This document shows positions 1,998 through 22,682 of a stretch of DNA of 24,387 nt, piece after piece. The stretch lies in NCBI GenBank assembly GCA_041751515.1, contig JBGSXH010000075.1, positions 1 to 24,387 of the forward strand, given 5' to 3'. The stretch comes from Cyclobacteriaceae bacterium (GTDB lineage: Bacteria > Bacteroidota > Bacteroidia > Cytophagales > Cyclobacteriaceae). Made by a program: the position numbers and the translations under genes. The number at the start of each line of letters is the position of its first letter. Position 1 is the stretch's first letter. Under the pieces are notes generated by a model. The model had not been told where the DNA came from. It did not search any database and saw nothing but the letters and a program-made list of their open reading frames with translations.

Positions 1998-2110
1998 TTA
2001 TATAGCGCTTATCATGAGATGAAGAATTTAAAAACCTGCAATATATCCAAGTAATGCAGGCCTTCTATATTTGAGAATCTAAAACTTTACGCATCAGCAT
2101 AGACTATAAT

Positions 2111-2150
2111 TGTACGAACAATGAAAGTACAGTGGATTTTGCTTAAAGAA
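2111..2150 (-). promoter_or_regulatory. Candidate operator/promoter motif upstream of the PiT gene (copy 1; TGTAC-N11-GTACA dyad)
   Basis: 2113-2150 matches 5756-5793 at 28/38 positions without gaps. The core TACGAACAAT-nn-AAGTAC matches at 16/18. It lies 116 nt upstream of the PiT start codon. Confidence 0.5.
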
Positions 2151-2357
2151 AAAAGTTTGCTCCCTGATTTCACATCAACCCGTATAAATTATTTACGTAG
2201 CCGCAGTTTATACCGGGAAAGTATAGAATAAACCGGTAATACTATTTTATCTAAACCATATCGCTTATTAGTAAAATTGGTATATAGTGGGTAAGCAATC
2301 GGTTGAATGGCGCAAAATATTTTAACTTGGACTCGTCTTCAATCGATGCTTATACTT

Positions 2358-3497
2358 ATGAAAACTCTGTTTTTATCGTTTTCCCTTATCCTCCTCGCCA
2401 TTAACTTTTCGCTATCGCAAAAACAGCTCATCGATACTGATGCGACCAGTGAAACCCGGGCTCTGTACCGTAATCTCGGCAAGCTGGCAAAAAAGCATAC
2501 ACTCTTTGCTCACCAGCATGCGACGGAGTATGGCCACGGCTGGTCTGGTGATGAAGACCGCTCCGATGTAAAATCGGTCACGGGCACACATCCCGCCATG
2601 ATTGGTGTGGATATCATGGGATTCAGTGGTAAATCACAGGAGGAGATTGCCCAAAACAAGGCGAGTTTAAAGCAAAATGTACTGGACACTTACCATCGTG
2701 GTGGTGTTACCACTGTGGCCTGGCATTTCGCTAATCCAGTTTCCGATGGTGGCTTTTACTGGAAAGACAGCGTTTCGCTGCCAGCCGTCAGCTATATCAT
2801 TCCCGGCGCTGAAGCCCATGAAGCGTACAAGGCTATTCTGGACGATATCGGCGATTGGGCCAATAGTCTGCAGGCAGAAAACGGCGAATTGGTGCCGCTC
2901 ATTTTTCGCCCTTACCACGAATTTGATGGCGATTGGTTCTGGTGGGGTGCCAGGCATTGCAGCCGCGAGAAATTCATCGACCTATGGCAATTTACAGTCA
3001 GCTATCTCCGCGATACGCTTGATGTGCATAACTTCATTTATGCCTTCACCCCAGACAATCGTTTTGACGACGAAGCTTCTTTTCTGGAAAGATACCCTGG
3101 CGACGAGTGGGTGGACATGGTAGGGATGGACAATTATGCCGACCTGGGCCGCGACCGCTACGATATTGAAACTGCTGCAGCTAAGCTCAAAATCGTGTCC
3201 GACTACGCAAAAAAAGCCAACAAGCTGGCCGCCTTTACCGAAACCGGACTGGAATCCATTCCCGACACTACCTGGTGGACGAAAACCCTACTTGCCACTA
3301 TGCGCAAGCACGATATGCAGCTCTCCTATGTGCTGGTATGGCGTAACGATATCAATAGTCCTACGCACTATTACGCGCCGTTCCCCGGCCACGAAAGTGT
3401 GCCCGACTTCATTAAATTCCGCAAAGACGAATACACCCTTTTCGAAGAAGACCTGGATAATATTTACAAAAGAAAACGGTTTTTAGGCATATTTTAG
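2358..3497 (+). CDS. Glycoside hydrolase family 26 beta-mannanase with a signal peptide
   Basis: GH26 motifs 'RPYHEFDGDWFWWG' (acid/base Glu), 'YPGDEWVDMVGMDNY' and 'AFTETG' (nucleophile Glu). The ATG at 2358 (MKTLFLSFSLILLAINFSLSQ) begins a typical signal peptide and is preferred to the ORF-track start at 2307. Confidence 0.92.
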   Translation: MKTLFLSFSLILLAINFSLSQKQLIDTDATSETRALYRNLGKLAKKHTLFAHQHATEYGHGWSGDEDRSDVKSVTGTHPAMIGVDIMGFSGKSQEEIAQNKASLKQNVLDTYHRGGVTTVAWHFANPVSDGGFYWKDSVSLPAVSYIIPGAEAHEAYKAILDDIGDWANSLQAENGELVPLIFRPYHEFDGDWFWWGARHCSREKFIDLWQFTVSYLRDTLDVHNFIYAFTPDNRFDDEASFLERYPGDEWVDMVGMDNYADLGRDRYDIETAAAKLKIVSDYAKKANKLAAFTETGLESIPDTTWWTKTLLATMRKHDMQLSYVLVWRNDINSPTHYYAPFPGHESVPDFIKFRKDEYTLFEEDLDNIYKRKRFLGIF

Positions 3498-3532
3498 ACT
3501 TTAGAATAATCAAATCCTTGTTTTATGCCTTA

Positions 3533-4492
3533 TCAGAAATAAATAGGATGCATGATAAGTTGTTTTTGCGTATTGTACTCCAGGGCAGGCATTGGAATTC
3601 TGTACATGCTTATCAAATAGATGGCAGTCTTCAAAAACTTATTCTTCACAGGAAGATATCGTAAATCGATATCAGGTGAAATAAAGAATTGCCGATAGGA
3701 ATTATAGCCATGTGCCAAATTTTTATCAGGATTCCCGTAAACCATGCCTCCTGCGCCATAGCCAGCAGCGATATTCAGCCATTTGGGGAAATTACTATCG
3801 TTTTTTAGAAATGCGAATATGTCCACAGAGTACCAATACGTCTGTCCGTTATAATCCTGCAGCAGCTGTTCAGCAAAAGTACTTCCAAACATTTCTAGTC
3901 GCTGGGGAGAATATTCCGATCTGCTGAAAGAAAATTTCGGCATAATGCGAATTTCCTTCCAGGTAAGCTCCTGCGCAATGACAGCTGCAGAGCCCAGCGT
4001 ATTGGCTGCAAAATCACTGACCGAAAAGCCATATTGTGAACTGAATCCGTCAAATATTTCGATGGGAGTCTGTAAAACAAAACCAAGCATTCCGCCAATC
4101 CAGATTGCTTTCTTCTCCTGCACACCCGCCCAACGCAGGGCATCTATGCCGGCACGGCTCTGGTGAAAAGCCGTGTAGAAATGGCCTGCTTTGTCCATTT
4201 GGTTCCAATAAAGCAGGTCATCGTGAAATTGAAAACTGCTTCTGGTATCCTGAGAATACCAGATATGATTTAAGGCAACAAGACTTGCTGCATAGCCGAC
4301 CCCAAAGCCTACGGATAAGCCTATCAAACGCCGCTTCTTTTGTTCGGCCGTAAGTGTGTCAGCTGGCGTCTCGCTCCCTTCTTGTGCCTGAGCATTAACC
4401 TGTATGTTCAGGGAACTACAAACGAGGCATAGTACAAGGAAAAGAGATAAATAGCACCTCCTAAAAATGCGATACAGCATTGAGATAGGCAT
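3533..4492 (-). CDS. DUF2279 (YfiM-like) domain-containing protein
   Basis: Signal-peptide-like N-terminus, 'WNQMDKAGHFYTAF' (DKxGH), 'IEIFDGFS..YGFSVSDFAANTLG', 'DYNGQTYWYS', and a C-terminal aromatic residue. This pattern is typical of Bacteroidota DUF2279 proteins. Confidence 0.8.
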   Translation of the reverse strand: MPISMLYRIFRRCYLSLFLVLCLVCSSLNIQVNAQAQEGSETPADTLTAEQKKRRLIGLSVGFGVGYAASLVALNHIWYSQDTRSSFQFHDDLLYWNQMDKAGHFYTAFHQSRAGIDALRWAGVQEKKAIWIGGMLGFVLQTPIEIFDGFSSQYGFSVSDFAANTLGSAAVIAQELTWKEIRIMPKFSFSRSEYSPQRLEMFGSTFAEQLLQDYNGQTYWYSVDIFAFLKNDSNFPKWLNIAAGYGAGGMVYGNPDKNLAHGYNSYRQFFISPDIDLRYLPVKNKFLKTAIYLISMYRIPMPALEYNTQKQLIMHPIYF

Positions 4493-4623
4493 TAATGAAC
4501 CGGTTAAAAATAAAATGCCGCATTATACTAACATTTTAATAAATTAACTACCGAAAGTATAAATTATAGAGGAACTTTGTCATCCATTAAACAACTTCAA
4601 ACGCTTTCCTTAGGCCAAAAAGC

Positions 4624-4658
4624 AACAGGGCTGCTAATGGTTAATTAACAGCCCTGTT
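4624..4658 (-). terminator. Probable intrinsic terminator downstream of arsM
   Basis: Perfect 10-bp inverted repeat AACAGGGCTG (4624-4633) / CAGCCCTGTT (4649-4658), followed on the minus strand by GCTTTTT. It lies 25 nt past the arsM stop. Confidence 0.7.
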
Positions 4659-4682
4659 TAGCCAATTCGGTGCTATAGTGCA

Positions 4683-5654
4683 TCAGCAACATCCGCCTCC
4701 ATCATAATAAAAAGTACTTTCTGACAGATAAATATCTTTCCTTTCAAGTCCAGCCAGCGCTTTGGCCGTCTTATCGCAAACCGCCAATGGCTGATTGGGC
4801 ACTAGTGTATGCCCCTTATGATCATCAAAATACTCCTCATTACCATAGTAAATGGCTGTTTTACCTGTAAATATGCATGGACCATCCTCAGGCATAGGGT
4901 CTTTGATAGCGCAGATTTCGACACTTTCGATATAGATTAACTCCTGCGTATCATATTGCCCTGGCGCCAATATGCGGTAAGGTCGTTTGGCACGTATTTC
5001 AACTGTACCAAAGCCAACTTCCGTGATGGTATCAAGGTAGGCTTGCAGCGGCAGTGAACCGCTGAGGCAAAGGGCACGCAGCCTATCATCTTCCCGCAAA
5101 CTTTCCGGCATATCCTGCTCACAGATAGGATCACTCATCACAAGCCGACCATTTGGTTTCAGAACTCGGTACATTTCCTCCAGAGCTTTCTTCAGATCCT
5201 CCACTTTAAATATATTGAAAAGACAGTTTTGTGCAGCTACATCAATACTGTTATCGGCTACCGGCAAGTTGAGCGCATCTCCCTGCTTCAGGCTCACAAA
5301 ACTTTTATCGAACCAGGGGTTCATTTTTTCAGCTTCTAAGAAATTTTGTGCAGAAGCTTCAAGCATTTCTTCTACCACATCTACCCCGATCACCCCGGCA
5401 GGTTTTCTACTAAAATAAGCAAACTGTAGCAGCTCCATGCCACCACCAACACCCACATACAATACTGTAGGTGCGTTAGCCAGGTCACGAGGGTTTACCG
5501 TACTGCCACAGCCATAATTCATCTCGAGCATGCGTTTGGGCATGGACAGCTCCGGCAATTGCCAGATGGGCGTTGTGGTGCAACAAAGCCCTACATCTGG
5601 CGTAATGGCTGCGGTCTTATAAACATCTTTCGTAGTTTCTAAATAAGTATTCAT
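4683..5654 (-). CDS. arsM: Arsenite S-adenosylmethionine methyltransferase, cyanobacterial/arsenosugar-associated type
   Basis: The N-terminus 'YLETT..VY...A..PDVGLCC' with 'MNYGCGSTV.P.DL', SAM motif I 'VLYVGVGGG', 'QNCLFN', 'ALCLSG' and a terminal 'GGGCC' match, from recall, the Synechocystis-type ArsM subfamily. The ArsM catalytic Cys positions are present. Confidence 0.88.
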   Translation of the reverse strand: MNTYLETTKDVYKTAAITPDVGLCCTTTPIWQLPELSMPKRMLEMNYGCGSTVNPRDLANAPTVLYVGVGGGMELLQFAYFSRKPAGVIGVDVVEEMLEASAQNFLEAEKMNPWFDKSFVSLKQGDALNLPVADNSIDVAAQNCLFNIFKVEDLKKALEEMYRVLKPNGRLVMSDPICEQDMPESLREDDRLRALCLSGSLPLQAYLDTITEVGFGTVEIRAKRPYRILAPGQYDTQELIYIESVEICAIKDPMPEDGPCIFTGKTAIYYGNEEYFDDHKGHTLVPNQPLAVCDKTAKALAGLERKDIYLSESTFYYDGGGCC

Positions 5655-5753
5655 ATATTCCCGTATTTTTCTTTAAATAGTAATAGGTATAATTAATTGC
5701 GCTGGCTGTTACTTGACCATACAAAAGCTGATGCTAAATATATAGATATTAGG

Positions 5754-5793
5754 TATACGAACAATTGAAGTACGGCAGATCTGATTTAAAAAA
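5754..5793 (-). promoter_or_regulatory. Candidate operator/promoter motif upstream of arsM (copy 2; TATAC-N11-GTACG on the + strand)
   Basis: Ungapped 28/38 match to 2113-2150. It lies 102 nt upstream of the arsM start, in the same orientation relative to the gene as copy 1. Confidence 0.5.
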
Positions 5794-6006
5794 TTAACGG
5801 TCTTCTGTAAAAAATTCATAGTTTAAATTATTTTCAGCAAATGCGTCGTGGTAAGGATTGGCTACGGGAATGGTGATGCCTTCAGTTAAGAAGGCGCCGG
5901 GGGGGGCCTGTAGATGAAATTTCAGGAACCGCTGCTCACCGAGAAATTAAGTAAGGCGTCGAAAATTCAGATTAGATAAGGAACAGCGTTGAACTTTAAT
6001 TTGCAG

Positions 6007-6014
6007 CAAAAATA
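6007..6014 (-). promoter_or_regulatory. Bacteroidota primary-sigma -7 element pointing toward arsM
   Basis: The minus strand reads TATTTTTG(C), an exact match to the TAnnTTTG consensus. No clear TTTG -33 box sits at canonical spacing. Confidence 0.45.
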
Positions 6015-6221
6015 CAGCAATCGCCCATAAAGATTATTAAAACCTCTACGGTTTTCAGATAGCCGATAAAATTTAGAGCGCTGCATTGACGCATACATTC
6101 TTTTCCCTGACCTGAAAGATAGTGTAAGAAGCAGAGCAGTGACCAGCGATCGTCTACATAATTTTTCATCTCATTAGCAACTTTAGCTAACAAGGCAAAC
6201 ACTTTTTTGCTGATGCCAAAA

Positions 6222-6252
6222 GCGTCAACACTTTATTTAAAAGTATTGACGC
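6222..6252 (-). terminator. Probable intrinsic terminator after the DUF6249 gene
   Basis: Hairpin GCGTCAA-c-ACTT ... AAGT-a-TTGACGC, followed on the minus strand by TTTT. It lies about 27 nt past the stop at 6279. Confidence 0.65.
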
Positions 6253-6676: not shown

Positions 6677-6708
6677 GACATGACGTGTATGGCTATCGGT
6701 TGCAATTA
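6677..6708 (-). promoter_or_regulatory. ECF-type promoter driving the DUF6249 gene
   Basis: The minus strand reads TAATTGCAACCGATA-N13-TGTC. The -35 block, spacer length and -10 are identical to the promoter at 6775-6806. Confidence 0.75.
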
Positions 6709-6774: not shown

Positions 6775-6806
6775 TAATTGCAACCGATATACCGCAATAG
6801 CTTGTC
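6775..6806 (+). promoter_or_regulatory. ECF-type (autoregulatory) promoter driving the sigma / anti-sigma operon
   Basis: The plus strand reads TAATTGCAACCGATA-N13-TGTC, with an AAC-containing -35 and a GTC-containing -10 as in ECF promoters. It ends 10 nt before the ATG at 6817. Confidence 0.75.
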
Positions 6807-6816
6807 TTATCAAATA

Positions 6817-7389
6817 ATGAATGAAGAAAAAGCCAGGGTAAACCAGATTTTGCAGGGAGATATGAAAGCCTTTACGCTGCTCATCAAAGATTATGAGCGG
6901 CTCGTAAAACATATGGTTTGTCGTGTCCTGAGCAATCAGGAAGATGTGGAAGAGCTTTGTCAGGATGTGTTCATCAAAGTATATGAAGAACTAAAAAACT
7001 TCAAGTTTCAGTCCAAACTTTCCACCTGGATCGCCACTATCGCTTATCGCATGAGCATTAATCATGTTCGAAAGAAAAGGCTGCCTATAGAAGATCCTGC
7101 TCAGGCTGAAAAGCAATTTCTGAAGTTTGCCGTCCATACAGAATCGCCAGAAAAACATATCGCAGCAGAAGATCTGGGCAATTACATACGGCAAATGATT
7201 GCGCAACTTCCCGTGCATTACAGCGTAGTCATCACTTTATACCATCTGGAAGAAATGAATATTGGAGAGATTTGTGAAGTTACTCAGATGCCCGAAGGCA
7301 CGGTGAAAAACTATTTGTTCAGAGCAAGAAAACTCATGAAGGAGAAGCTTGAAAAATTTATGGCAAAGGAGGATTATTATGAACGATAA
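6817..7389 (+). CDS. ECF RNA polymerase sigma-70 factor (SigW/RpoE-like)
   Basis: Region 2 'DVEELCQDVFIKVY..L..F.FQSKLSTWIATIAYR.SIN' and region 4 'QLP.HY..VITLYHLEEM..GEICEVT.MPEGTVKNYLFRARK'. The ORF-track TTG at 6778 lies inside the promoter, so ATG 6817 is preferred. Confidence 0.95.
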   Translation: MNEEKARVNQILQGDMKAFTLLIKDYERLVKHMVCRVLSNQEDVEELCQDVFIKVYEELKNFKFQSKLSTWIATIAYRMSINHVRKKRLPIEDPAQAEKQFLKFAVHTESPEKHIAAEDLGNYIRQMIAQLPVHYSVVITLYHLEEMNIGEICEVTQMPEGTVKNYLFRARKLMKEKLEKFMAKEDYYER

Positions 7390-9148: not shown

Positions 9149-9892
9149 CTAAACAGGGGCAGCCTGCAGCAAATAAAATGTACCAACAGCAAGCATTGCG
9201 CCCAGTAGCGGTCCTACAACAGGCACCCAACTATACGGCCAGTCGCTCATGCCTTTCCCATGAATGGGCAAAACCCAATGTGCCAGTCGCGGACCTATAT
9301 CCCTGGCGGGATTGATTGCATAGCCAGTTGTGCCACCTAACGATAAACCAATAACCCATACTAGGAAAGCAACCGGAAGTGCACCCAGTGAGCCCAGCCC
9401 CACCGGCGTTTGTGCTTCGTCTTCCATGGCGGCCGGCGTAAAATACAGGATCACCAGTATCAATACATAGGTGCCGACAATTTCACTGAACAGATTGAAA
9501 GGGTAGTTCCGGATGGCAGGTATGGTGGCGAAAACACCAAGTTTGACTAATGGATTTTCTGTTTGCTTAAAATGATCATAATAGATGACCCAAACGAATG
9601 CAGCTGCAACAAAAGCACCGGCGATTTGCATGCAGGTATAAGGAATGACCAGCAACCAATCAAACTGCCCGGCCATTGCCAGGCTGAGACTCACAGCCGG
9701 ATTCAGATGCGCACCGCTATAAGGTGCAGCCACAGCCACACCTATGAACACTCCCAGGGCCCAGCCAGTGGTTATGACAATCCAGCCACTGCCGTGCCCC
9801 TTGGTACCGGGGAGGATGACGTTGGCTACCACACCGGTACCCATGAGTATCAATAAGCCTGTTCCAATAAATTCAGCCAGGAAGGGATGCAT
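9149..9892 (-). CDS. glpF: Glycerol uptake facilitator (MIP aquaglyceroporin)
   Basis: Two NPA motifs, 'SGAHLNPAVS' and 'GYAINPARDIGPRL' (the Asp after the second NPA marks aquaglyceroporins). It is the last gene of the glpDKF operon. Confidence 0.95.
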   Translation of the reverse strand: MHPFLAEFIGTGLLILMGTGVVANVILPGTKGHGSGWIVITTGWALGVFIGVAVAAPYSGAHLNPAVSLSLAMAGQFDWLLVIPYTCMQIAGAFVAAAFVWVIYYDHFKQTENPLVKLGVFATIPAIRNYPFNLFSEIVGTYVLILVILYFTPAAMEDEAQTPVGLGSLGALPVAFLVWVIGLSLGGTTGYAINPARDIGPRLAHWVLPIHGKGMSDWPYSWVPVVGPLLGAMLAVGTFYLLQAAPV

Positions 9893-9901
9893 AACTAATA
9901 T

Positions 9902-11404
9902 TTATGATGAAAGCCATTTTTTACTTCTTTCCACTGCCTTGTGCCAGGTCTTAAGATTTTCAGCGACTTTTTCTGCATCCATTTTGGGCGTAAAGGTTTC
10001 ATCCTCTTCCCATAGCTTTTTAAGTGCTGATTCATTTTCCCAATAACCAACAGCCAAGCCAGCAAGATAAGCGACACCGAGTGCTGTTGTCTCGAGCATT
10101 TTTGGCCGCTGCACCTTGCAATTAAGCAAATCGGTCTGAAATTGCATTAAAAAATTGTTAACGGCAGCACCGCCATCGACTTTCATCAAAGGAATAGTAG
10201 TTGCTGTGTCTTTCTCCATTGCATGCAAGACATCATACACCTGATAGGCAATTGCCTCCAGCGCAGCCCTGGCAAAATGTGCTGGGGTAGTCCCTCTTGT
10301 AATGCCAAAAAATGCCCCTCGGGCATCCTGGTCCCAGTGGGGAGCTCCCAGCCCCGTTAATGCAGGCACAAAGTAGACGCCATCATTGTCGTCCAGCGAC
10401 TTGGCCAACTTTTCACTTGCTGCCGCATCGCTTATCAGTTGCATGCTATCACGCAACCATTGAATGCCCGCGCCGCCAATAAATACGCTGCCTTCCAATG
10501 CGTAGCTTACTTTGCCATTCAACTGCCAGGCGATGGTAGTAAGCAGTTTATTTTTTGATTCAATTGGCGTGCTGCCCGTGTTCATCACCATAAAACAGCC
10601 TGTTCCATAGGTAGTCTTCGCCATGCCTTTCTCCAAACAAAGCTGTCCGAAGAGTGCTGCCTGCTGATCTCCCGCGATGCCAGCGATCGGAATTTTCGTA
10701 GAAAAAATTTTCCCGGAAGTGGTGCAGAATTCTTCACTACAGGATTTTACTTCAGGTAGAATTTGATGAGGAATATCAAACAAGTCCAGCAGTTCATCAT
10801 CCCAAACATGTTCATATATATTGAACAACATGGTACGGCTGGCATTGGTAATATCAGTAAGGTGCTTTTTGCCATTAGAAAGCTTCCATATCAGCCAGCT
10901 ATCTACCGTACCAAAACAAACCTCCCCTCTTGTCGCCTTTTCTCGTGCCTGGGGTACATGATCTAGCAGCCACTTTACTTTAGTCGCGGAGAAGTAGGCA
11001 TCTATTCTTAGACCTGTTTTTGCTTTAATAACCTTTTCTGCACCACCCGATATCAATTCATCACAGAAAGGCGCAGTGCGCCTGTCCTGCCAGACGATGG
11101 CGTTATGCAGTGGTTTTCCTGTTTGCCTGTCCCAGAGAATGGTGGTCTCACGCTGGTTGGTGATCCCTATAGCAGCAATTTGTTCTGCAGCAATATTGGC
11201 TTTTGTAATTGCTTCCGTTGCTGCCGAAGCCTGAGAGGTCCAGATCTCCATAGGATCATGTTCCACCCAGCCCGGTCTGGGAAAATACTGCGGAAAATCA
11301 CGTTGTGCGCTGGCAATCACCTGACCTTGTTTATTAAAGAGCATTGCTCTTGAGCTGGTCGTTCCCTGGTCTAAAGCCAGAATATATTGGCTGGAGTCTG
11401 TCAT
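9902..11404 (-). CDS. glpK: Glycerol kinase
   Basis: '[11 protein letters not shown]', '[10 protein letters not shown]', 'WQDRRT', '[10 protein letters not shown]', 'KTTYGTGCF', '[14 protein letters not shown]'. Confidence 0.98.
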
Positions 11405-11416
11405 GAGGTAGCTTGT

Positions 11417-12979
11417 TTATTGATCAATCATATATTTACTGGCAAGGGCCCTGAAGGCTTCCACCTGTTTTGCTGCCCAGTTATCACTTTTCTTTAAAAA
11501 TTCCTGCATAATTTCGGCCACTTTCGGAGCCATTTCTGCGGCAGCTTTAGCATCTAAAAATAGTATTCGCAGCCTTCTGGCCAGCACATCTTCAACTTTC
11601 ACTGCCATTTCTTCACGCATGGCCCACACCACCTCCGCTGCTGTATAGGGGTAATTTTGATGCAGCAGACTACCAAGCGCTGCATCTTTATCTATTAAGC
11701 TCTTGATTTTCCCAGCTTCACTGCCATAGACACCCCAATGTCCATCATGCGTTTTCTGGGTGGCACCCACCATGGGAATATTTTCGCTGTTCTCCTGCTT
11801 TAGCTTCAGACCATGTATTTTACTGACTGCTTCTATCGTATCTTCCCCCATCTTGCGATAGGTAGTCCACTTGCCTCCAATGATAGAAATGAGTTTACTA
11901 CTGCTGACAGCAACTTTATGACTTCTTGAAACCTCTTTCGTTTTAGCGCCTTCTTCGCTGGGAGCAGCCAAGGGACGCAATCCGGCAAATACGGAGCGCA
12001 CGTCTTGCCGGCCGGGAGCCTTGGCAAGATAATGCTTGCAGGTGTCCAGAATAAAAGTAATTTCGCTTTCCAATGCTTTCGGTTCCAGTTTCGGATTTTT
12101 ACGAATAGTATCGGTTGTTCCCACCAGTAATTTCCCTTGCCAGGGAATACCAAACAATACCCTGCCATCGCTGGTCTTAGGAATCATAAAAGCTTCTTTG
12201 CCGCCCAGGAATGATAAATCCAATACAAGGTGAGCCCCCTGACTCGGCATAATGGATCGCCTGGCATCGGGCGCATCCAGCTTCAAAATCTTATCGGCAA
12301 ATACACCGGTGGCATTGACTACAGCGCTGGCAGTAACATTATACTCTTGCTTGCCGAGCTGGTCTTTCAGCACAGCGCCAGTCACGTCCCCTTTATCGTT
12401 TTTCAGCAATTGCGCTATCTTCATATAATTGAGCATGCAACCGCCCATGGCATCACAGGTTTGCACTATATTGATAGCTAGCCGGGCATCGTCGAATTGT
12501 CCGTCGTAGTATAAAACGCCTCCTTTTAGACCGGTTTTGTTAATATTTGGCAGATGCTGCAGCACACGGCGTGAAGACAACCATTGTGACTGCCCTATCC
12601 TCAATTTACCAGCCATAATATCGTAGACCTTTAGCCCGATGCCATATTTTAACAGGTCAAAAAAACTATATACGGGTATCACAAATGCCTGACGGGAGGC
12701 AATGTGTGGGGCATTTCTCATAATAATGCCGCGTTCTTTCAAAGCTTCAAAAACCAGCCCTATATGCCCCTGCGCAAGATACCGCACTCCCCCATGCAAC
12801 AGCTTGGTACTACGACTGGACGTACCCTTAGCAAAGTCAGATTTATCTACCAGCAACACACTTAGCCCTCTGCTCAATGCCGATAACGCCACACCGAGCC
12901 CGGAAGCACCTCCACCTATGATCAAAACATCCCAGGAATGGGTTATTTTCAGTTTTTCAATATTTCTATTCCTATCCAT
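11417..12979 (-). CDS. glpD: FAD-dependent glycerol-3-phosphate dehydrogenase/oxidase
   Basis: 'IIGGGASGLGVA', 'DFAKGTSSRSTKLLHGGVRYL', 'DGQFDDARL', 'LVGTTD', 'FAGLRPL', 'GGKWTTYRKM'. Confidence 0.96.
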   Translation of the reverse strand: MDRNRNIEKLKITHSWDVLIIGGGASGLGVALSALSRGLSVLLVDKSDFAKGTSSRSTKLLHGGVRYLAQGHIGLVFEALKERGIIMRNAPHIASRQAFVIPVYSFFDLLKYGIGLKVYDIMAGKLRIGQSQWLSSRRVLQHLPNINKTGLKGGVLYYDGQFDDARLAINIVQTCDAMGGCMLNYMKIAQLLKNDKGDVTGAVLKDQLGKQEYNVTASAVVNATGVFADKILKLDAPDARRSIMPSQGAHLVLDLSFLGGKEAFMIPKTSDGRVLFGIPWQGKLLVGTTDTIRKNPKLEPKALESEITFILDTCKHYLAKAPGRQDVRSVFAGLRPLAAPSEEGAKTKEVSRSHKVAVSSSKLISIIGGKWTTYRKMGEDTIEAVSKIHGLKLKQENSENIPMVGATQKTHDGHWGVYGSEAGKIKSLIDKDAALGSLLHQNYPYTAAEVVWAMREEMAVKVEDVLARRLRILFLDAKAAAEMAPKVAEIMQEFLKKSDNWAAKQVEAFRALASKYMIDQ

Positions 12980-13156
12980 TTATTTCGAATTCCTAATTTA
13001 TAGTTAATAATAGATACAAAAAGATATAAAAGCAAATATTAGCAGTAATTATTGCTTATTTATTTTATTTTATCCTTTCTTTAAATACCTTTAATGGCAG
13101 GGGAAGACGTCGGCTAATTAAGATAAGTAGAAAGAAGCACATTAACAGTTATATTC

Positions 13157-13921
13157 ATGACAATTGCAGAAAGGCATCAGTTTATCATAGAAAAGCTTCG
13201 GAGGGAGGGCTTCGTGGGCGTAGCGGAACTTAGCAAAACGATGGAAGTTACAATGGTCACTGTACGCAAAGATTTGAAGATGCTTGAAGACAAAGGGATG
13301 CTCTATCGCTCGCATGGCAGTGCCACTTTAACTTCCCCTTATGTCAATGACAGACCTGTGCAGGAAAAAAAGCTAGAGCAGGTGTCCGAGAAGCAGAAAA
13401 TCGCCCATGCGGCGGCTAAGCTATTGGAGGCTGAAGAGGCCATCATAATAGGATCGGGCACTACCGTCATGGCCTTCGCCCAGGCCATCCCGTCCGACCT
13501 CAAACTCACAGTGCTCACCGGTGCAATGAATGTGACCTTGGCTTTAGCTGCAGATCCGAATATTGAAGTGGTTCAGCTGGGAGGCGTGGTAAGGCGAAGC
13601 AGCTCGTCTGTAGTGGGACATTTTGCAGAAGAAATGCTGGTGCAATTTGCCTGTAGCAAGCTATTTCTAAGTGTCGATGGTATAAGTCCGGAATTTGGGC
13701 TCACCACCTCCAATATGATGGAGGCGCACCTGAATGCCAAAATGATAAGGTCCGTACAAAAAACGATCGTGCTGGCCGACAGTACCAAATTCGGAAAAAA
13801 AGGCTTTGGCAAAATTTGTAATATTGAAGATGTAGATATGCTCATTACGGACACAGGCCTTTCCGAATCTTATAAAAAAGGTCTGGAAGATCGTGGCCTT
13901 GAAGTACTCATTGTTCAATAA
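13157..13921 (+). CDS. glpR: DeoR/GlpR-family transcriptional regulator, probably controlling glpDKF
   Basis: HTH 'V.ELS..MEVT.VTVRKDL..LE..G.L.RSHGSA' and a DeoRC sensor domain 'GSGTT', 'LFLSVDGI', 'LADSTKFG'. It is divergent from glpD. Confidence 0.85.
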   Translation: MTIAERHQFIIEKLRREGFVGVAELSKTMEVTMVTVRKDLKMLEDKGMLYRSHGSATLTSPYVNDRPVQEKKLEQVSEKQKIAHAAAKLLEAEEAIIIGSGTTVMAFAQAIPSDLKLTVLTGAMNVTLALAADPNIEVVQLGGVVRRSSSSVVGHFAEEMLVQFACSKLFLSVDGISPEFGLTTSNMMEAHLNAKMIRSVQKTIVLADSTKFGKKGFGKICNIEDVDMLITDTGLSESYKKGLEDRGLEVLIVQ

Positions 13922-20386: not shown

Positions 20387-20722
20387 GCGCTTTTTATCCA
20401 AGCGCATAGGTTAATCCTCAAAGCTCTTTGTTGATTTGTTCTAATAAACTATCCGAAATCCACTGGCAGAACAGTTCGTATAAAAGCGCCAATGAAGCAA
20501 AAAGCTTTTTCGAGAATACAGCCTTATCCTTTGTTGCTATCGAAATTGTGGTAACTATAATAACGAATAAGCACTCTCTCCTTTCCACAATATTGAAGCT
20601 GCCAGCGCTTTTACTTGTCGATCATTTACTTGTAAGCTTTACAACAACGAAAAAGACAAAACCTTTTCACCTTCAATCTGTTTAATTTTAAAACCGATAA
20701 ATTAAACATAAATAGATGTAGT

Positions 20723-22438: not shown

Positions 22439-22682
22439 ATGGGAGAAAGCGAAAAATACCATACTGGTCTCTTGTCTGTATTTTTTGTATTTTTACTTCA
22501 ATTGATCAAAATTTTAAAGTACCGACTATCAAATAACTTACCCTTCATCCAATGCAACTGAGTGCTGCAGACGCCTTTCACACCAGGACTTTTTAAGGTG
22601 CGTAGCGTTTTAATAATCTATTATTTGTAATTGCAGGTACTTTTCTCCAACTTCTTTACTCATATTCAAATCAGTAAAACCT

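Follow-up and report, generated by a model that had tools for sequence, protein, structure and literature searches.

Arsenosugar clusters are among the closest described systems to the locus analyzed here. They combine the genes for ArsS (TIGR04167), the arsenite methyltransferase ArsM (NF038099), a peroxidase-like protein (TIGR04169), a glycosyltransferase (TIGR04282) and a rhodanese (NF045521), and we know of no regulator of these genes in Bacteroidota. Three further systems serve for comparison: the ars operons controlled by ArsR/SmtB proteins; the housekeeping (sigma-A) promoter of Bacteroidota, known from promoter work in Bacteroides and Flavobacterium as a -33 TTG element, a spacer of ~19 nt and a -7 box TAnnTTTG; and promoter duplication or recruitment after operon disruption, where a co-transcribed pair becomes separated and the downstream gene bears a copy of the upstream control region. 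The subject of this analysis is a block of about 50 bp that occurs twice in a contig of 24,387 nt from a Cyclobacteriaceae bacterium (assembly GCA_041751515.1, contig JBGSXH010000075.1; the whole contig is called the window below), once upstream of arsM and once upstream of a gene for a PiT-family anion permease (PiT). The source is a low-coverage hot-spring metagenome-assembled genome of 3.75 Mb that is 83% complete and consists of 789 contigs.

Compared with the described arsenosugar clusters, the locus retains familiar parts in an unfamiliar order. The window ArsM is a full-length member of its family (residues 3-323 on profile positions 1-321), the source genome also encodes the peroxidase-like protein, ArsS and a fragment of the glycosyltransferase, and PiT is the last gene of the cluster in other genomes. 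In contrast to those clusters, the genes of the source genome are spread across three or more contigs, PiT is detached, and arsM stands without arsS as a monocistron ending in a terminator. ArsS is encoded on another contig of the fragmented assembly (C753) and is not adjacent to arsM. arsM and PiT are ordinary members of known families, arranged as parts of an arsenosugar cluster that has been scattered.

The firmest result, and the one most open to reuse, is that arsM and PiT are recurrently paired outside the source genome. The neighborhood was analyzed in 80 metagenomic PiT loci (L080-L159), which hold the closest PiT relatives at 46-57% identity. An arsenosugar-type arsM (68-78% identity) was found on the PiT strand in 25 of the 80 loci and was directly adjacent in 22. 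Of these 25 loci, 17 have arsM immediately upstream of PiT and 5 have it immediately downstream; in the other 3 the two genes are 0.7-4 kb apart. arsM and PiT are adjacent in the relative G027 too, and locus L090 (629-6104) holds a full cluster for a peroxidase-like protein, ArsS, a rhodanese, the TIGR04282 glycosyltransferase, a purine-nucleoside phosphorylase, ArsM and PiT. From the perspective of arsM, only a minority of loci show the pairing: a PiT gene lies within 2.5 kb in 4 of 80 named Bacteroidota loci, and arsS is directly upstream of arsM in 55 of them. A literature search yielded no description of the arsM-PiT gene pair. In several GC-rich loci a canonical ArsM-like methyltransferase (27-33% identity, Cys-rich C-terminus) precedes PiT instead; examples of methyltransferase-PiT pairing are L090, L130, L134, L153 and L158. 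Because PiT pairs with both the arsenosugar-type ArsM and the canonical ArsM-like methyltransferase, the neighborhood suggests that the role of this PiT subfamily is not confined to phosphate nutrition and that it handles an arsenic oxyanion.

On its minus strand the window shows the majority order, arsM followed by PiT, broken by the GH26 gene, the DUF2279 gene and an intrinsic terminator. This interrupted order, together with the pairing in other genomes, makes a split ancestral arsM-PiT cluster well supported, as the first-pass annotation of the window had proposed. The same annotation had assumed that the two genes are transcribed separately. This is likewise supported, since a terminator placed after arsM and a GH26 gene on the opposite strand prevent transcription of PiT from the arsM promoter. 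The loci of 19 relatives, compared with a view to dating the insertion, showed no synteny of DUF2279 with GH26 or any other window gene.

The repeat itself was reproduced as first described. Positions 2113-2150 and 5756-5793 align without gaps at 28 of 38 positions, with 16 of 18 in the core. Both copies have the same orientation relative to their own gene, and they lie 116 nt before the ATG of PiT (2113 versus 1997) and 102 nt before that of arsM (5756 versus 5654). The ungapped likeness extends further, to 52 bp with 36 identical positions (69%), and all similarity is gone beyond the block. Read along the minus strand, the sense strand for PiT and arsM alike, the core is GTACTTnnATTGTTCGTA, and all 16 specified positions are exact in both copies; the pattern in this reading is GTACTT-nn-ATTGTTCGTA. 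The core of the PiT copy is GTACTTTCATTGTTCGTA (2113-2130, with a TTG at 2119-2121) and that of the arsM copy is GTACTTCAATTGTTCGTA (5756-5773). The arsM copy follows immediately on the stop codon of a pseudogene remnant that lies upstream. The 36 matches are spread evenly over the block, with no significant clustering in the 18-bp core (permutation p 0.24). Such an even spread fits a duplicated segment, and a block of ~50 bp with 69% identity describes the feature better than a tight site flanked by random sequence would. The dyad symmetry that had been read into the core is perfect in the PiT copy (TGTAC-N11-GTACA) and is not conserved in the arsM copy, which is symmetric at TAC-N11-GTA only. 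Both blocks were recovered without differences in independent Logan contigs of the source run, at a depth of ~3-7x and with no contig spanning the whole region. The sequencing runs that hold the sequence are DNA runs only, from a hot-springs metagenome. A small open reading frame on the plus strand across the block was considered and rejected on reading the sequence, because its ATG is present in the PiT copy only and its frame is not conserved.

Our preferred reading, which we hold tentatively, is that a duplicated or recruited control segment keeps arsM and PiT, former operon partners, under a common input. In the ancestral state an arsenosugar arsM would have been followed directly by a PiT-type permease in one transcription unit, as in many Bacteroidota and other bacteria. 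In the source genome the pair would then have been broken, with a strong terminator ending arsM and with DUF2279 and the opposite-strand GH26 gene intervening. PiT would have been left in need of its own control region, within a region of 360 bp shared with GH26. On the PiT strand, this region has a single notable feature, the second block copy, which stands at an equivalent distance from the ATG. Part of the arsM control region may have been duplicated or recruited upon the operon split, so that the two copies would share a common descent. Bound by the same regulator or by polymerase contacts, the block would serve as a docking site through which arsenic methylation and oxyanion transport stay co-expressed. 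It is plausible that the shared block renders arsM and PiT co-regulated.

The position of the arsM copy relative to a candidate promoter is consistent with such a role. The putative -7 box TATATTTA fits TAnnTTTG at 7 of 8 positions, and with the TTG in the core and a 19-nt spacer it resembles the Bacteroidota housekeeping promoter. The arsM block spans the -33 element plus ~30 bp upstream of it; the ~30 bp upstream of a -33 element are the zone where activators, repressors or UP-like contacts act. Two differences from a housekeeping promoter were seen: the PiT copy has the TTG only, and the block likeness continues ~30 bp beyond the -33 element, past the needs of a basal promoter. An exact TAnnTTTG is present further upstream of arsM, at 6007-6014. 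The overall arrangement, a separated pair in which the downstream gene bears a copy of the upstream control region, resembles the general evolutionary pattern in which a promoter is duplicated or recruited once an operon has been disrupted; a difference is that two other split cases (G003 and L101) have no such copy. We classify the block as a putative promoter/operator module, lineage-specific and present in two copies. If it is functional, the locus would be a small natural experiment in which insertion disrupted an operon and a copied control region brought its co-regulation back, and the 52-mer would be a handle for finding the regulator of arsenosugar genes in Bacteroidota. The regulatory claim draws on two sequences in one low-coverage hot-spring genome.

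Several results weigh against a shared control function. In the PiT copy the TTG is followed, at the position equivalent to the arsM -7 box, by TGCTGATG (2092-2099), which is not a -7 box, and the 303 nt upstream of PiT contain no TAnnTTTG with up to one mismatch. A terminator-like hairpin (2030-2065) lies between the PiT block and the ATG. With two copies only, no motif model can be built. Within the source genome, the block was not found upstream of the peroxidase-like/arsS operon, the glycosyltransferase gene or the arsR-arsC-acr3 operon. Nothing similar was found upstream of arsM or PiT orthologues in relatives and in metagenomic or named loci, and no shared motif was detected in G003, where arsM and PiT are unlinked, or in L101, where an inserted gene lies between them. 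Finally, the block pair was chosen post hoc out of the whole window, and under gapped Smith-Waterman alignment with harsher penalties the likeness is only marginal (score reached by 11 of 300 shuffles, p ~0.04).

The searches behind these negatives covered the source genome, loci with orthologues and other genomes of the family. In the 3.75-Mb, 83%-complete assembly, the core with up to two mismatches occurs at the PiT and arsM sites only. Scored on the 36 shared positions, no other site in the genome exceeds 25 of 36, a value on a smooth tail, and there is no third copy of the block. Upstream of arsM, the block was not found for orthologues in 12 relatives or for upstream-first arsM genes among 35 regions, and in ~70 named Bacteroidota arsM loci the best upstream core match was 7-12 of 16, which equals background. 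It was likewise not found in 70 PiT upstream regions. Across 300 genomes of the same family, the core with up to one mismatch was as frequent as a reversed-pattern control, and no exact match occurred. A wider hidden regulon, with further sites in front of arsenic genes and conservation at orthologues, is therefore not supported. Because the best PiT homologue is 59% identical and the collection holds no same-genus genome, close-range footprinting was impossible. A dispersed repeat of the repetitive extragenic palindromic (REP) or miniature inverted-repeat transposable element (MITE) type was rejected, given only two copies and the match of the 300-genome hits to the reversed control. The first-pass annotation had also listed a third, weaker copy, TTACTTCAATTGATCAAA, within the window. 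Its match of 14/18 to the arsM core is as stated; it is nevertheless at chance level, since 34 hits at 14/18 occur genome-wide (~0.2 extra expected per window), and its flanks are unaligned.

Further matches came up in these searches. In L002 (G002), the closest arsM orthologue, the 10-mer TACGAACAAT, which is the opposite-strand reading of the block core, is placed right at the start codon of arsM, and ACGAACAAT lies 29 nt upstream of arsM in L008 (G036). Both have the opposite orientation to the window copies and are therefore probably coincidence. Four PiT loci seemed enriched in ATTGTTCG between -109 and -138; this was discarded, as the stretch is coding sequence of a conserved upstream ArsM-like gene.

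The post hoc choice of the pair raises the question of chance. A chance likeness of two AT-rich intergenic regions, spotted after the fact, is in our judgment unlikely, and the outcome of the assessment depends on the statistic used. Matches of 16/18 alone are common, with nine direct pairs within the window. The direct 28/38 pair is a single one, compared with 0.05 on average over 40 windows that had been shuffled locally. The fairest background, in our view, is a set of 998 real upstream regions from the source genome, each taken in the orientation of its gene. Only 1 of 4000 random pairs of these regions reached 28/38, and a maximal-segment score at least as high as the observed one was reached in a fraction of 0.0003 of 3000 upstream pairs under +1/-1 scoring (1 of 3000), 0.011 under +1/-1.5 and 0.02 under +1/-2. 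The last value, 0.02 per pair, has to be set against ~50-100 pairs per window. Together with the marginal Smith-Waterman result it leaves room for chance, as do the lack of conservation elsewhere and another intergenic pair that outscores the block pair (5998-6050 versus 22601-22653, in inverted orientation, Smith-Waterman score 37). On the other side stand the 25 of 36 reached by the next best genome-wide match and the identity of the genes concerned. The best same-orientation intergenic pair in the window is arsM/PiT, the one gene pair recurrently linked elsewhere, and the two copies share their orientation and have a similar distance to the start codon. The similarity is thus unusual per pair; per window it would be borderline but for the independent functional link between arsM and PiT.

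About as unlikely, in our estimate, is a functionless relic, a segment that was duplicated in the rearrangement splitting arsM from PiT and has since decayed neutrally. The uniform ~69% identity over 52 bp without a significantly better-kept core agrees with this, as do the missing -7 box of the PiT copy, the absence of a third copy and the lack of conservation in other lineages. Persistence of 52 neutral bp at 31% divergence, with zero indels and at a similar distance to the start codon, is not expected, however, while all flanking similarity has been lost. Moreover, PiT must have a promoter in the 360-bp region, and no canonical one is found elsewhere there.

A narrower version of the preferred reading of a duplicated or recruited control segment would make the block a putative operator of an arsenic- or phosphate-responsive regulator, coupling PiT-type oxyanion uptake to the first arsenosugar methylation step. 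In this specific form we consider it improbable. The locus resembles ArsR/SmtB-controlled ars operons in that arsenic-related genes carry an upstream element with partial dyad symmetry, in a genome that encodes an ArsR (C473). It differs from them in that no ArsR gene is adjacent to the block and the dyad is not conserved between the copies. A local alignment of the block with the arsR-arsC-acr3 upstream region was no better than with shuffles. Pho boxes are recognized as direct repeats with an 11-bp period that also stand upstream of pst or pho genes. On reading the sequence, a TGTAC/TGTTC repeat with an 11-bp period was seen in the PiT copy; for comparison, the assembly offers no PstB above the cut-off and no PhoD. 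If the operator reading were true, the arsM-attached PiT would be a feeder of arsenate, or a related oxyanion, for organoarsenical biosynthesis, and selection would have rebuilt the coupling of uptake and methylation after operon breakage.

The block might instead act as RNA. It would then be a 5'-leader element common to both transcripts, either an attenuator or a leader that binds protein, and the promoters would lie farther upstream, such as the box at 6007-6014 of arsM. We regard this as very improbable. A short GUAC...GUAC/GUAU hairpin can fold within the block, and a hairpin with a U-run is present in the PiT leader. Against it, no Rfam match was obtained in the window, the leaders fold no better than shuffles (z -0.55 for PiT, +1.41 for arsM), the arsM leader has no terminator-like hairpin, and the stretch from the far box to the block is largely the remnant of a DUF4221 pseudogene. 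The hairpin in the PiT leader was found in the minimum-free-energy fold and does not appear in the terminator scan because its loop exceeds 8 nt. No upstream gene on the PiT strand needs a terminator at this place. The hairpin may act as an attenuator or mark where a short transcript beginning near the block ends.

An alternative sigma factor had been named as the possible common factor, and promoters of the extracytoplasmic function (ECF) sigma encoded 1 kb away (6778-7389) are equally improbable: although that gene adjoins the arsM upstream region and the PiT copy has no housekeeping -7 box, the 15-bp -35 block common to the twin promoters of the ECF gene, TAATTGCAACCGATA, has its only exact copies at 6694-6708 and 6775-6789, occurs near PiT or arsM only as a two-mismatch match of a kind abundant genome-wide, and is not found at either site, and the block copies (read from sequence) share no pair of an AAC-type -35 and a CGT-type -10 at 16-17 nt spacing.

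The coordinates of the block copies, the genes and the elements around them are collected in Table 1.

Table 1. Features of the arsM-PiT region of the window and related arsenic loci elsewhere in the source genome (G000)
Feature	Position	Strand	Details
PiT-proximal block copy	2099..2150	-	36/52 versus arsM copy
arsM-proximal block copy	5742..5793	-	36/52 versus PiT copy
Third copy of the first-pass annotation, TTACTTCAATTGATCAAA	22493..22510	+	14/18 versus arsM core, 12/18 versus PiT core
PiT-family anion permease, 372 aa	879..1997	-	PF01384 PHO4/PiT, 211.7 bits, profile positions 1-350 of 350
PiT-leader hairpin	2030..2065	-	CCUGCA/UGCAGG core, then U5; minimum-free-energy fold; ~33 nt before ATG
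GH26	2307-3497 (open reading frame; likely start 2359)	+	between arsM and PiT
DUF2279	3533-4492	-	between arsM and PiT
Intrinsic terminator after arsM	4624..4658	-	15-bp stem, then T run
Arsenosugar-biosynthesis arsenite methyltransferase ArsM, 323 aa	4683..5654	-	NF038099, 560.6 bits (cut-off 400)
Candidate Bacteroidota-type arsM promoter	5735..5764	-	-33 TTG 5762-5764 (in core), 19-nt spacer, -7 box TATATTTA 5735-5742
C-terminal remnant of DUF4221-family paralogue, 50 aa	5794..5946	-	stop codon abuts arsM block
Peroxidase-like protein and ArsS	G000 C753:2864-4239		receiver protein and histidine kinase adjoin on other strand
Start of TIGR04282 glycosyltransferase (fragment)	G000 C53:4737-4898		end of contig
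arsR-(DUF)-arsC-acr3 operon	G000 C473:401-2943		

The two proteins of the pair have homologues at very different levels of identity. The window ArsM is 72-79% identical to orthologues across Bacteroidota. For PiT, the closest homologue among 5.8 billion proteins is 59% identical, the closest one in metagenome contigs 57%, and its NCBIfam matches to PitA and CysP are far below the cut-offs. Former operon partners thus differ strongly in divergence, with 74-79% identity for ArsM across several Bacteroidota orders versus at most 59% for PiT. This contrast would reflect fast evolution or a foreign origin of PiT.

Much of the long region upstream of arsM on the minus strand (5794-6232) is not free intergenic DNA, and the region contains a decayed gene. 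Its C-terminal remnant matches G000 C342:12431-12565 in a tblastn search (58% identity over 45 aa, E 4.6e-9). The open reading frame neighboring this match on C342 hits PF13970 (DUF4221), and the remnant itself has no Pfam match. The DUF4221-family gene on C342 itself reads in three frames, and a G8 tract is present at 5900-5907 within the remnant. Descent of this remnant from an arsenosugar gene was considered and rejected, because it is DUF4221-like.

Other features of the window were recorded in passing. Tandem TTTACTTGT repeats at 20600-20660, upstream of a fasciclin/cupredoxin lipoprotein gene, are unrelated to the arsM/PiT block. A glycerol operon (9149-13921) encodes an aquaglyceroporin (MIP), GlpK, GlpD and a DeoR-type regulator. 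Aquaglyceroporins are known entry routes for arsenite, and nothing ties the one encoded here to the block. The inverted pair that outscores the block is the top intergenic likeness of the window, extending over ~53 bp with gaps (shuffle maximum 31). Its copy at 5998-6050 lies in the decayed region upstream of arsM, and its copy at 22601-22653 lies 30-80 nt upstream of a xylose-isomerase-like TIM-barrel gene.

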